Shown here: positions 3,967 through 29,251 of the stretch, in pieces
How the letters are laid out: each line of letters opens with the position of its first letter
How positions within the stretch are numbered: the first letter of the stretch is position 1
From: Nanoarchaeum equitans Kin4-M
GTDB taxonomy: Archaea > Nanobdellota > Nanobdellia > Nanobdellales > Nanoarchaeaceae
Length of the DNA: 32,000 nt
NCBI GenBank assembly: GCA_000008085.1
Contig: AE017199.1
Span: 390,001-422,000 of the forward strand
Reading direction: 5' to 3'
The notes under the pieces: model-generated
The model's input: the letters and a program-made list of their open reading frames with translations, nothing else
Database searches by the model: none
What the model was told of the DNA's origin: nothing
Translations under genes and position numbers: made by a program

Positions 3967-6900
3967 GGCCACCACCGTCCGCAGGACCGCTGACCCCGCC
4001 CGGTGGATGCCTGGGCTCGGGAGCCGAAGAAGGGCGTGGCAAGCTGCGATAAGCCAGGGGGAGGCGCACGCAGCCGTTGATCCCTGGATCCCCGAATGGG
4101 ACCTCCTGCCCGGGGGTTAACCCCGGGCGCCCCGATAAGGGGCGGGAACGCGGGGAAGTGAAACATCTCAGTACCCGCAGGAAAAGAAAGAGAAATTCGA
4201 TGGCGGGAGTAGGGGCGACCGAAACCGCCGTAGCCCAAACTGAATCCCGTAGGGAAACCTACGGGAGATGTGGGGTTGTTGGGGGTGGCGGCTTTCCCTC
4301 CCGCGGGAACCCGAACTCCGGTGGAAGTCCGGGGCCGTAGAGGGTGACAGCCCCGTAGGGGTAACCGCGGAGGGAGTGCCGCCACTTCCAGAGTACCGCG
4401 CCTCGGATATGGCGCGGGAAGCTGGGGGACACACGCCCCCAAGGCTAAATACTCCCCGAGTCCGATAGCGGACTAGTAGGGTGACCGAAAGGTGAAAGAG
4501 AACCCGTGGAAGGGAGTGAAAAAGAGCCTGAAACCGGGCGGGGATAGTCAGGTGGGGCCGGTTAAGCCCCCGGGCAAGGAACCCCCGGCGACGGGGTAGT
4601 ACTTGCCCGGGGGCTAGCCGGTTCCACCGTACGTTCGGGAGCACGTGCGGGGGAGTGTGCCCGAGTGGCGAGGTTAAGGGGATAAACCCCGAAGCCGTAG
4701 GGAAACCGAAGGCCCGCAGCCCTTATGGGCGAGGGGCCGCGTCCTATACGGGCGTAAGTCACTCGGGCACGACCAGAAGCCCGGCGATCTACCCCGGGGC
4801 AGGGTGAAGCGGGGTTTTTCCCCGTGGAGGCCCGAAGGGGTGGTGGCCTATCCCCTCCTCTGACCCCGGGGTAGGGGCGATATACCAATCGAGCCGGGTG
4901 ATAGCTGGTTCCCGCCGAAATGGGCTGCAGTCCAGCCTCGGCGGAGGCACCCTCGGGTGTAGAGCGACGGATTCCCGTGGCAAGGGGGTTAACCCCACCA
5001 CGGGAGTCCAACTCCGAAGCCCGAGGGGCCGTAGATGCCGGGAGACGGGGGCGGCGGATAAGCCGCCGTTCCGAGACGGGAACAACCGAGACCGGGGTTA
5101 AGGCCCCTAAGTGCCGGCTAAGTGGCTGGAAGGGTGTCCGCTCCCTAAGACACCGGGGATGTGGGACTAGTAGTGTCCATCATCTAAGGAGTGTGCAACA
5201 ACTCACCCGGCGAGGGAGCGGGCCCCGCAGATGGACGGGCCTAAGCCGGCCGCCGAGACCCCGGGCCGGGGATCCGATGGATCCCCGTGCGGTAGGCGGG
5301 CGTCCCGGTGGCCTAGAAGGCGGGCCGTGAGGTCCGCTGGAGCCGCCGGGAATGAGAATCCCCGCGTGAGTAGGAGCAAAGAGGGGTGAGAAGCCCCTCC
5401 GCCGAAAGGGAAAAGGGTTCCCTGGCAATGACCATCAGCCAGGGGTGAGTCGGTCCTAAGGCCGGCGGTAACTCCGCTCGGCCGAAAGGGAAAGGGGTTA
5501 ATATTCCCCTACCGCCCGGGTAGGCGCGGCAACGCCAAGCCCTACTCCCGACGCCTGGGGCTAGGCCGACCGCGGATTTCCCGCGGCCAACCGGGATAGG
5601 GCCGGGGAGTGCCATTATGGCGAGAACCGGCCTAAACCCGGGACGGGGCCCCCGTATGGGGGCTTCGGCCGAGGCCCTGGGCCCATGAAAAGGGAGTAGG
5701 GAACGATCCCGGGCGACCGTACCGAGAACCGTGACAGGTTCCCTGGGTGAGCAGCCTAAGGCGGTGGGGTATAACCTGGCCGAGGGAAATCGGCAAATTG
5801 GCCCCGTATCTTCGGTAGAAGGGGTGCCTGCGGTCGTGGGGTAATCCTGCGACCGCAGGTCGCAGTGACAAGGGCGGGCCGACTGTTTACTAAAAACATA
5901 GCCTCCGGCAAGCCCGAAAGGGTGTGTACCGGAGGTGACGCCTGCCCAGTGCCGGTACCTGAACCCCCCGTCCAAGGGGGCTAAGGGCCGGTAAACGGCG
6001 GGAGTAACTGTAACTCTCTTAAGGTAGCGTAGTCCCTTGCCGGTTAAATGCCGGCTCTGCGAACGGCGTAACGAGCTCGCCACTGTCCTCGGCCAGGGCC
6101 CCCTGAAAACGCCGTTCCCGTGGATAGGCGGGAGAGGCCCGGTGGGAAGAGAAGACCCCGTGAAGCTTAACCGCAGCCTGTCGTTGCCCCGTTGTCCCCC
6201 ACGCTCAGCGTAGCGGGGAGCGATGAACCGGCCCCTCCGGGGGTCGGGGATGCGCCCATGAGACACCCGCCGTGGGGGACAACGGGGCTAACCCCGAAAG
6301 GGGGACAGCGGCAGGTGGGCGGTTTGGCTGGGGCGGCACACCGCCGAAAAGATATCGGCGGTGCCCAAAGGTCGGCTCAGGCGGGTCAGAAATCCGCCGT
6401 AGAGTGCAAGGGCAAAAGCCGGCCTGACACGGCCCTTTACAAGGGGCCGTGGCGGGAAACCGCGGCCTAGCGAACCCCGGTAGCCCCCGTGTGGGGCTTC
6501 GGGACGACGGAAAAGCTACTCCGGGGGTAACAGCTTGGTCGCGGGCGAAAGTTCCCATCGACCCCGCGGTTTGAGACCTCGATGTCGGCTCTTCTCACCC
6601 TGGCCGTGCAGCAGCGGCCAAGGGTGGGGGTGTTCACCCATTAAAGAGGAACGTGAGCTGGGTTTAGTACGCCGCGAGGCAGTGTGGATTCTATCTACCG
6701 GGCCTGTTCGGCGGCTGAGGGGAAGGACGGCCTAGTACGAAAGGAACGGCCGTCCGGCGCCTCTAGTCGACGGGGTGTCCGTATGGGCAGCCCCGGCAGC
6801 CACGCGCTAGGGGGTAAGGGCTGAATGCATCTAAGCCCGAACCCCTCCCCGAAAAGAGCCGCCGATCCCCCTCGGGTAGAAGACCCGGTTGATGGGGGGG

Positions 6901-6978
6901 CGGTGGAAGCCCCGAGGGTTTCCGAGGGGCGAGCCGGCCCCTCCCAATCGGGGGGTGGTCCTGCGGACGGTGGTGGCC
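3967..6978 (+). rRNA. rrl: 23S (LSU) rRNA including its terminal processing stem
   Basis: Contains conserved LSU blocks GGTGGATGCCTGGGC, GAAGGGCGTGGCAAGCTGCGATAAGCC, GGGGAAGTGAAACATCTCAGTACC, TTAAGGTAGCG and CTGAATGCATCTAAGCC. Nt 3967-3988 (ggccaccaccgtccgcaggacc) is the exact reverse complement of 6957-6978. It is very GC-rich in an AT-rich context. Mature ends lie somewhere inside the stem. Confidence 0.95.
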
Positions 6979-11276: not shown

Positions 11277-12291
11277 CCCACATTTTTGGATATAAACCAG
11301 GTTTCATAAATACTCTTTCTATATCTACAGCTATTCCTCTTTTCTTTTCTAACATTTCTTTAGAATCCATAAGGGCTATACCAATAGCAACTAATTCTCC
11401 TTTTAATGTATGTATCGAAACTAAATCGCCTTTCTTTATATTGCTATAAAGCTTGGCTATTCCTGGCACTGCTAAATTGGCCCCATGCACAATTGCAGCA
11501 ACAGCACTATCTAAAATATATATTTTTTTCAAATGTTTTACAGCCTCTTCTACAGGTAAAAACACTTTCCTTATATATTCTTCGTTCCCTTCTTCTTTCC
11601 AAAAATATAGAGAATCCACTATGTCTTGCAAATATACCGAATTGTTTTCATGGAATGGCCCAGACTTTATTCTTCTTAATTCTTGCATATGTGCCCCAAC
11701 TCCAAGCTTTACTCCTATATCATGGATTAGCTTTCTAATATATACTCCCCCTTGGGTAGAAACTCTAAATAAAACATCTTTCCCATCTATCTCTATTATT
11801 TTAATACAATAAACTTTTTTCTTTCTAGGTCTCTTTTTTACAGCACTTCTCAATGGGGGGGTTTGTATTATAGTACCTACAAATTTGGACATAACTTTAA
11901 TTATATCTTTTTCGCTAACTTCTTTATGCAAATGCATTAGAGCTACATACTCTTTACCTGCTATTAACAAAGTTTGTAAAACTTTTGTGGCTTCTCCAAT
12001 TGCTATAGGCAATACCCCAGTTACTTTTGGGTCTAAAGTACCACCATGGCCCGCTTTTACACCAACTATGTCTCTTACCCACGCTACAACTTGATGTGAA
12101 GTGGGCCCAGAAGGTTTGTCCAAATTTATTACAGAATATTTTAATAATCTCTCTATTGGTCTATTATAAGGATCTTCGCCCCATTTTTCATTAGTTTCAG
12201 CTTCTTTTTTAACCCATATTTCATATTTTTCTAACTCCCATGGTAAAGGGCATTCCTGCTCTTCTAAACATTTAGAGCAGAATATTCGCAT
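11263..12291 (-). CDS. cbf5: H/ACA RNP pseudouridine synthase Cbf5 (TruB family with PUA domain)
   Basis: INLDKPSGPTSHQVVAWVRDIVGVKAGHGGTLDPKVTGVLPIAIGEATKV. I moved the start from GTG 12309 to ATG 12291 (MRIFCSKC...), which has a TTTTTATA box at the -28/-26 position (+ coordinates 12312-12319). Confidence 0.9.
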   Translation of the reverse strand: MRIFCSKCLEEQECPLPWELEKYEIWVKKEAETNEKWGEDPYNRPIERLLKYSVINLDKPSGPTSHQVVAWVRDIVGVKAGHGGTLDPKVTGVLPIAIGEATKVLQTLLIAGKEYVALMHLHKEVSEKDIIKVMSKFVGTIIQTPPLRSAVKKRPRKKKVYCIKIIEIDGKDVLFRVSTQGGVYIRKLIHDIGVKLGVGAHMQELRRIKSGPFHENNSVYLQDIVDSLYFWKEEGNEEYIRKVFLPVEEAVKHLKKIYILDSAVAAIVHGANLAVPGIAKLYSNIKKGDLVSIHTLKGELVAIGIALMDSKEMLEKKRGIAVDIERVFMKPGLYPKMWVSQG

Positions 12292-17576: not shown

Positions 17577-17650
17577 TGGGCCCGCGGGGATTCGAACCCC
17601 GGACCTCCGGGACCCAAACCCGGCGTCCTAGCCAGGCTAGACTACGGGCC
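17576..17650 (-). tRNA. tRNA-Pro (UGG)
   Basis: Full cloverleaf on the minus strand: GGGCCCG/UA/GUCU-AGCCUGGCUA-GGAC/G/CCGGG-UUUGGGU-CCCGG/AGGUC/CGGGG-UUCGAAU-CCCCG/CGGGCCC/A. No CCA is encoded. Confidence 0.95.
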
Positions 17651-17670
17651 CAGAGTTTGCAAAACTAAAT

Positions 17671-19227: not shown

Positions 19228-19281
19228 ACCCCATCGGGGGCAGACACCCGGAGGTCCCGGGTTCGAATCCCGGCGGGGGCC
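19228..19281 (+). tRNA. split-tRNA 3' half (positions 38-73 plus an 18-nt 5' leader), consistent with tRNA-His
   Basis: A38/CCCGG/AGGUC/CCGGG-UUCGAAU-CCCGG/CGGGGGC/C73 occupies 19246-19281. No D-arm or 5' anticodon strand is present. It is preceded by the GC-rich ACCCCAUCGGGG, then GCAG, then the AC of the bulge. Discriminator C and the GCAG helix strand (pairs with C/U-U-G-C/U at 32-35) fit a GUG anticodon. Confidence 0.75.
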
Positions 19282-27017: not shown

Positions 27018-27024
27018 TATATAG

Positions 27025-27098
27025 CGCCCGGGCCCGGATTCGAACCGGGGACCTGCCGGTTAACAGCCGGCCGCTCTACCGGGCTGAGCTACCCGGGC
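27025..27098 (-). tRNA. tRNA-Asn (GUU)
   Basis: GCCCGGG/UA/GCUC-AGCCCGGUA-GAGC/G/GCCGG-CUGUUAA-CCGGC/AGGUC/CCCGG-UUCGAAU-CCGGG/CCCGGGC/G. No CCA is encoded. Confidence 0.95.
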
Positions 27099-29146: not shown

Positions 29147-29174
29147 CCAAATTAAGGATTAAGCAAAATAAAAA

Positions 29175-29223
29175 CGGGCAGCCACGGGGAACCCCGCATG
29201 CTAGGCCGCTACACCACGGGGCT
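29175..29223 (-). tRNA. split-tRNA 5' half-like gene (acceptor 5' strand, D-arm, 5' anticodon-stem strand, GC-rich 3' tail); isotype unresolved
   Basis: The minus strand reads AGCCCCG/UG/GUGU-AGCGGCCUA-GCAU/G/CGGGG/UUCCCC/GUGGCUGCCCG and then UUUUUAUUUU. No T-arm is present. A TTTTTAAA box lies exactly 28/26 nt upstream of A29223. Confidence 0.65.
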
Positions 29224-29243: not shown

Positions 29244-29251
29244 TTTAAAAA
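29244..29251. promoter_or_regulatory. TATA box for the tRNA 5' half (minus strand); possibly also fires toward ftsZ
   Basis: The palindromic TTTAAA core at 29244-29249 is 26 nt upstream of 29223 on the minus strand. On the plus strand it would start a roughly 80-nt ftsZ leader near 29270. Confidence 0.6.

Follow-up and report, generated by a model that had tools for sequence, protein, structure and literature searches.

The closest described systems are the split tRNA genes of Nanoarchaeum equitans, in which six tRNAs (iMet, His, Lys, Gln, and two Glu) are built from 11 half genes, and for which RNA-seq detected all 11 half transcripts, from which the six isoacceptors, including Gln, are assembled (Fujishima et al. 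2008; Randau 2012). The literature assigns every half a separate promoter and terminator as well as a GC-rich stretch complementary to the matching half only, and the halves are joined by a heteromeric endonuclease and a ligase. The published promoter of N. equitans tRNA genes is a box A, TTTAAA, located 26 nt 5' of the start (Fujishima et al. 2008; Randau 2012), and the published terminator type is a T-run. N. equitans is known to lack RNase P, and a leaderless start at a purine is the published signature of this condition. In two of the six, tRNA-Lys (30/31) and tRNA-Gln (32/33), the cut precedes the anticodon (Chan, Cozen & Lowe 2011, Genome Biol 12:R38, Table 1, PMC3218864). For tRNA-Gln(UUG), which according to the literature has no other gene copy in N. 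equitans, the same table gives a 5' half starting at 419223(-) with precursor and mature lengths of ~49 and 33 nt, a 3' half at 356559(+) with lengths of ~61 and 40 nt, and a ligation site at 32/33. The 5' half gene was first described in 2005 (Randau, Pearson & Söll 2005, FEBS Lett 579:2945), and RNA-seq mapping of its transcript followed in 2012 (Randau 2012).

The window, that is, the whole stretch of 32,000 nt analysed here, contains a 49-nt unit on the minus strand at 29175-29223, whose neighbouring proteins exactly match NEQ473 (FtsZ), NEQ472, and NEQ469 of N. equitans Kin4-M. Once 390,000 is subtracted, the published start 419223 falls on window position 29223, which is A1 of the unit, and the published position 409246 falls on 19246, which is A38 of the tRNA-His half; because this shift fits both published positions, the window corresponds to genome positions 390,001-422,000. 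The unit almost certainly encodes the 5' half of tRNA-Gln(UUG), a trans-spliced tRNA of N. equitans Kin4-M, with organism, strand, start, 49/33 lengths, and distant partner all the same as in the published record and no difference between them. The half gene is thus already known and ordinary for N. equitans. The half sequences themselves were sought in the literature text and supplements and were not found there.

Read directly from the window, the unit (AGCCCCGUGGUGUAGCGGCCUAGCAUGCGGGGUUCCCCGUGGCUGCCCG, minus strand, 29223 to 29175) has the layout A-GCCCCG-UG-GUGU-AGCGGCCUA-GCAU-G-CGGGG-U-UCCCCGUGGCUGCCCG, followed by TTTTTATTTT. Its promoter is a box A, TTTTTAAA, at 29244..29251 on the minus strand, in which the TTTAAA (plus-strand coordinates 29244-29249) occupies positions -26 to -21 relative to A1. 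The preliminary description had placed a TATA box 26 nt upstream of A1 with the same spacing as in the two intact tRNA genes, and this spacing is indeed common to four tRNA-type genes of the window, namely the half gene, tRNA-Asn (27098), tRNA-Pro (17651), and the tRNA-His 3' half (A19228). The 5' exon of tRNA-Gln(UUG) spans 29191..29223 on the minus strand, with 33 nt from A1 to U32, and is composed of the acceptor 5' strand AGCCCCG, U8 and G9, the D-arm GUGU-AGCGGCCUA-GCAU, G26, the anticodon-stem 5' strand CGGGG, and U32; because the D-loop exceeds the standard numbering by one nucleotide, nucleotide 33 corresponds to U32. The intervening tail UCCCCGUGGCUGCCCG, at 29175..29190 on the minus strand, would be lost on trans-splicing; it has 16 nt, which equals the published precursor of ~49 minus the mature 33, and a G+C content of 81% (13/16) in otherwise AT-rich surroundings. 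Nucleotides 2-16 of the tail form the GC-rich strand expected to pair with the leader of the 3' half. Directly after G49 lies the T-run terminator TTTTTATTTT (29165..29174, minus strand). The unit thus combines a box A and a T-run of its own, a contiguous 5' part of a tRNA, and a GC-rich extension past the exon. Two repeats reported in the preliminary description were recovered as well: CCACGGGG is present twice, at 29182-29189 and 29214-29221 of the plus strand, and CGGGG-UU-CCCCG reads as a perfect inverted repeat. The 32,000-nt window holds no complement of the tail, the best other matches to CGGGCAGCCAC carrying one or two mismatches and lying within the 23S rRNA or the tRNA-His half (six seen versus 2.2 expected).

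The tRNA body was compared with intact tRNA-Gln genes. The first 32 nt of the half gene are identical (32/32) to the intact tRNA-Gln(CUG) gene of N. equitans, called by ARAGORN and situated between NEQ077a and RtcB, and the half gene bears the archaeal tRNA-Gln 5' features, i.e., A1, the G2-C6 acceptor, and a D-stem of the GUGU/GCAU type as in its relatives. Alignment with the intact tRNA-Gln(UUG) genes of Nanopusillus, Nanopusillaceae, Nanoclepta, and Hadarchaeota showed similarity up to U32/U33, after which it was lost. Body and context together are far beyond chance. The genes next to the intact tRNA-Gln(UUG) of Nanoclepta and Nanopusillaceae were not homologous to the neighbours in the window. 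Neither ARAGORN nor Rfam called the half gene in the window, even at E ≤ 10, and Rfam found no truncated-tRNA match when the stretch was cut at the exon end; the only calls of these programs in the window were tRNA-Pro, tRNA-Asn, and one 23S rRNA. The half gene is therefore a feature that these standard tRNA finders miss. The 23S rRNA gene (3978-6967) has no adjoining 16S or 5S gene within the window.

The recognition of a tRNA 5' half gene with a Gln-like body beginning at A1 was correct in the preliminary description, which had also pointed to an anticodon loop fitting no isotype, to a Gly-like half, and to initiator-like features. The loop claim has to be withdrawn: the exon ends at U32, the anticodon UUG is, according to the literature, carried by the 3' half, and what had been taken for a CCC anticodon is consequently the start of the GC-rich tail, UCCCCG... 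being intervening sequence. The odd loop arose because the canonical 37/38 split had been forced on the half gene. Both a Gly(CCC) half and an initiator half were rejected, as the body equals tRNA-Gln(CUG) and the published positions of the iMet halves of N. equitans, 35249 and 3254, lie beyond the window (Chan et al. 2011). The fallback guess of the same description, that the split point is non-canonical and the partner half possibly carries the anticodon, agrees with the published ligation site 32/33 (Chan et al. 2011). [quoted passage not shown] In half genes of the N. equitans type, isotypes should not be called by counting to positions 34-36.

If the split were canonical, the exon would extend to position 37 and include an anticodon CCC (Gly-like) or an aberrant one, and the tail, starting at position 38, would comprise only UGGCUGCCCG. 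A positional reading of the sequence does give 37/38, and four of the six N. equitans split tRNAs are cut there (Chan et al. 2011). Nevertheless, we regard this arrangement as very unlikely at the present locus, for which the published mature length is 33 nt and the published ligation site 32/33 (Chan et al. 2011). For 32 nt the body shows no difference from tRNA-Gln(CUG), and divergence sets in exactly at the start of the anticodon loop; a Gln body that combined U32, C37, and an anticodon CCC would correspond to no tRNA. The GC-rich strand would, moreover, be just 10 nt long, against stretches that reportedly measure 12-14 nt. An exon that includes the anticodon and position 37 is thus not what the half gene presents.

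For the split at 32/33, the following course of events is proposed, in which the ligation site, the UUG anticodon, the transcripts, and the trans-splicing enzymes are taken from the literature. Transcription would proceed from the half gene's own box A promoter, start exactly at A1, and end at the T-run, yielding an RNA of ~49 nt composed of 33 nt of tRNA (A1-U32) and the 16-nt GC-rich tail. The tail would anneal to a complementary leader on the 3' half, an RNA transcribed on its own (356559+, ~61 nt) that would supply the tRNA from U33 onwards, with the anticodon UUG, the remaining part of its arm, the T-arm, and, as the acceptor 3' strand, CGGGGCU-A73. The junction would then adopt a BHB structure, to which we applied the strand rule of a helix, a 4-bp central helix, a 3-nt bulge, and a second helix, with the cut after the second bulge base. 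Under this rule, C27-G30 (29193..29196, minus strand) would form the central helix by pairing with CCCG of the leader, G31, U32, and the following U (29190..29192, minus strand) would form the bulge containing the 5' cleavage site, which is published as 32/33 and follows U32, and CCCCGUGGCUGCCC(G) would be the outer-helix strand of the 5' half. We infer a leader of ~21 nt, (C)GGGCAGCCACGGGG-CCCG-NN, ahead of UUUGGUCCCCGUGACCCCGGUUCGAAUCCGGGCGGGGCUA, in which the first 14-15 nt would be complementary to the tail; its length as built by the rule (15 + 4 + 2 = 21 nt) agrees with the published ~61/40. Cleavage after U32 and ahead of U33 would fall to the heteromeric splicing endonuclease (NEQ205/NEQ261), and RtcB, an RNA ligase, would unite both exons.

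The partner locus was approached by walking along public N. equitans contigs, starting from the leftmost complete protein of the window, which led to the Logan contig ERR9765744_792 (37,609 nt), and extending the walk by exact protein matches to NEQ432, NEQ423, and NEQ417. The mapping of the contig to the genome was checked with the 3' half of tRNA-Lys(CUU), which lies at the published 380370, exact to the nucleotide. ERR9765744_792 stops just past NEQ410 and NEQ409, and its end, on the genome plus strand, is GTGACCCCGGTTCGAATCCGGGCGGGGCTA followed by the T-rich flank CTCCTTTATTTTTCTT. GTGACCCCGGTTCGAATCCGGGCGGGGCTA maps to genome positions 356,569-356,598, the end of the published tRNA-Gln 3' half, and the locus, …CCCGGUUCGAAUCCGGGCGGGGCUA, is a second tRNA-Gln 3' end with a flank of its own, where the CUG gene instead continues TCCATAG. 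Its CGGGGCU-A73 pairs with the AGCCCCG of the half gene, both U72 and A73 being present, and when the exon was joined to UUUGG… and the sequence of the partner locus, ARAGORN called a tRNA-Gln(ttg). The contig covers the last 30 nt of the 3' half and ends before the leader and the anticodon because a k=31 assembly stops in the repeat; the complementarity of tail and leader and the UUG anticodon would follow from the literature and from the geometry described above. In short-k contigs, the breaks fall 18-28 nt inside the 5' half and, in the CUG gene, 30 or 38 nt (exactly U35) inside its 3' end, which is consistent with both tRNA-Gln ends occurring twice in the genome, and the break at U35 of the CUG gene weakly supports the UUG anticodon of the partner. 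As contigs break inside the tRNA-Gln repeats, split-half genes are systematic break points of assemblies; such short-k contig ends were seen at L094 17723-17752 (minus strand) and in L003, L062, L063, L065, L066, and L075-L077.

The preliminary description had proposed a genome-wide search for the partner, with a T-arm ending in CGGGGCT; pattern scans for the partner gave no N. equitans match. These scans covered genome contigs with CGGGCAGCCAC…TTCRAWY…CGGGGCT and with TTTGRNCCCCG…TTC…YGGGGYT, neither of which matched N. equitans. The sequence of the partner locus would match the TTTGRNCCCCG pattern, so the N. equitans genome apparently lies outside the scanned set, and the negative results carry no weight. 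A scan of metagenome contigs with CGGGCAGCCAC…TTTGNNCCCCG gave 26 matches, all of them chance matches in GC-rich DNA, and a scan of viral contigs for the partner came back empty. Two of the partner patterns began with C, possibly upstream of the purine at which transcription starts.

The identity of 32 of 32 nt with the CUG gene would also be expected of a dead remnant, a functionless truncated duplicate of the 5' part of tRNA-Gln(CUG), and the half gene folded alone was no more stable than shuffled sequences (z = 0.5). Such a remnant is nonetheless highly improbable, as the promoter is intact and at its exact spacing, the terminator follows the unit, and nine independent public contigs show no variation in promoter, 49-nt unit, or terminator. 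In addition, a tRNA-Gln 3' end is present at the published partner site, and both the transcript and the mature tRNA have been described in the literature for a genome with no other tRNA-Gln(UUG) gene. A further explanation would make the half an artefact of a mis-joined reference at a hot spot of recombination or assembly. It could draw on one contig, JGI 3300014713 Ga0169447_101536 (L002 2798-2875, the same as L059 and L073), in which the FtsZ-side promoter and the shared 32 nt are joined to the remainder of tRNA-Gln(CUG), making an intact gene, and to NEQ077a/NEQ077, loci that are ~350 kb apart in the reference. We give this explanation practically no credence, since the half arrangement occurs in nine contigs versus this single outlier, which is the only exception among more than 20 contigs. 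All other contigs bearing NEQ077a (at least six, plus 10 similar ones) carry the normal CUG locus with another promoter, and the join of the outlier lies inside the 32-nt repeat, as a chimeric assembly predicts. The outlier is probably a chimeric assembly across that repeat, and a real reciprocal exchange, which would leave both genes functional, is possible.

Regarding the other split tRNAs of N. equitans, the element at 19228-19281, which had been considered not to be the partner, is indeed the 3' half of tRNA-His(GUG), published at 409246(+). Situated on the plus strand, it starts at A19228 with a TTTAAA at -26 and has the leader ACCCCAUCGGGGGCAGAC, and its mature part begins with A38 at 19246 and ends in CGGGGGC-C73, the partner half being published at 221794, outside the window. 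This half obeys the same BHB geometry for a 37/38 split, with a leader ending …CCCCAUCGGGG-GCAG-AC immediately before A38. The canonical split tRNAs (His, iMet, Glu-UUC, and Glu-CUC; all 37/38) share with the Gln half the promoter, the terminator, the logic of the GC duplex, and the endonuclease and ligase. In contrast, their 5' halves carry the anticodon, while the Gln 5' half stops at U32 and its isotype is unreadable by position. [quoted passage not shown] The 3' half of tRNA-Lys(CUU) (L084 ~11919-11978, plus strand) has the promoter TTTTTAAA and the leader GGGGGAUGGCCGCCGAG, and its mature part runs from G31 (L084 11936, which is the published 380370). The two intact tRNA genes of the window, at 17577-17651 and 27024-27098 on the minus strand, start at a purine 26 nt after TTTAAA and have no 5' leader.

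Outside N. equitans, whose relatives are described in reviews as having no split tRNAs, an interrupted tRNA-Gln(UUG) was found in the uncultured DPANN archaeon GCA_964573185.1, deposited as 'Ca. Woesearchaeota', with a G+C content of 28%. The TTTGRNCCCCG scan of genome contigs returned from this archaeon a perfect tRNA-Gln(UUG) 3' part with no adjoining 5' part; the 5' exon was located 1,089 nt upstream, the interruption falling at the same 32/33 site. The locus lies at L015 5081-6243 (contig CAZNIQ010000025.1; the same as L105), L104 7908-9069, and L106 6525-7686, and three assemblies (ENA, NCBI, JGI) agree fully over its 1,162 nt. Its layout is AGCCCCGUCGUCUAGCGGCCAAGGAUGCGGGGU, then, past the first junction, ACCAUGGCGGCCGACCCC…, an ORF of 354 aa (called as 331 aa), and …GGGGUCGGCCGCCGGGCCCGAG, and past the second junction UUUGGUCCCCG…. 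The ends of the intervening sequence (GGCGGCCRNCCCC / GGGGNYGGCCGCC) form a 13-bp GC duplex, or 16 bp with the flanking pairs, and CCCG-AG lies directly before U33, so a 3-4-3 BHB can form, with both strands of the arrangement proposed for C27-G30 of N. equitans present in actual sequence. In a local cofold, the BHB reached -44.5 kcal/mol versus -48.6 with the native anticodon stem, the BHB being ~4 kcal/mol less stable, and ARAGORN called the joined exons as tRNA-Gln(ttg). A TATAAA is situated at -27 of the GGGG of the 3' segment, and therefore a cis intron and adjacent split halves are indistinguishable in this archaeon.

The locus appears to be an example of a BHB intron at a non-canonical position. 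It shares with the N. equitans split the tRNA, the 32/33 site, and the closure by a GC duplex; in contrast, its exons lie 1,089 nt apart on one strand around an ORF, whereas N. equitans transcribes them separately from opposite strands, at a distance of 62.7 kb. GGGGTCGGCCGCCGGG (L015 6182-6197) matches the tRNA-Lys leader GGGGATGGCCGCCGAG (L084 11920-11935) in 13 of 16 positions, a value reached by 11 of 5,000 shuffles, and CCATGGCGGCC (L015 5115-5125) matches the Gln tail CCGTGGCTGCC (window 29179-29189, minus strand) in nine of 11, which 136 of 5,000 shuffles reach; the ATG at the latter match is a possible start codon of the ORF. This likeness of the ends to the half-gene extensions of N. 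equitans is no more than suggestive. We consider it conceivable, though on balance doubtful, that the N. equitans 32/33 split goes back to a long BHB intervening sequence that occupied this site and carried an ORF. The locus is relevant to the long-standing debate on whether introns gave rise to split tRNA genes, and if the ends are homologous, GCA_964573185.1 would represent an extant stage between tRNA genes with an intron and split ones. No paper on this interrupted locus was found in a shallow literature search.

The ORF itself matched no Pfam or NCBIfam family and no PDB relative, had no homologue but itself among 5.8 billion proteins, and left no remnant in the N. equitans loci. A single-sequence AlphaFold model was useless (pLDDT 38.9). 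A LAGLIDADG reading, proposed by eye from IASCVDFDG, was unsupported, the only hint being a match with E = 0.18 to the endonuclease part of an intein. When the ORF part of L015 was combined with a 112-aa N. equitans protein (L089 20457-20795, plus strand) in a chimeric homology query, the N. equitans protein remained unmatched and the ORF part alone was matched.

RtcB was observed close to a tRNA-Gln gene in four lineages (L068 2310-2435; L025 490-3776; L018 2779-6060; L104 1574-9069), a proximity that may be residual synteny or chance. The RtcB of GCA_964573185.1 has 58-67% identity to that of N. equitans and is thereby no more distant from it than the RtcB of Nanoclepta (60%). In N. equitans, the RtcB gene is divergently adjacent to tRNA-Gln(CUG), in Nanoclepta and Nanopusillaceae it lies two genes downstream of tRNA-Gln(UUG), and in the L104 organism it is situated 3.5 kb upstream of tRNA-Gln and contains an intein with a LAGLIDADG domain.
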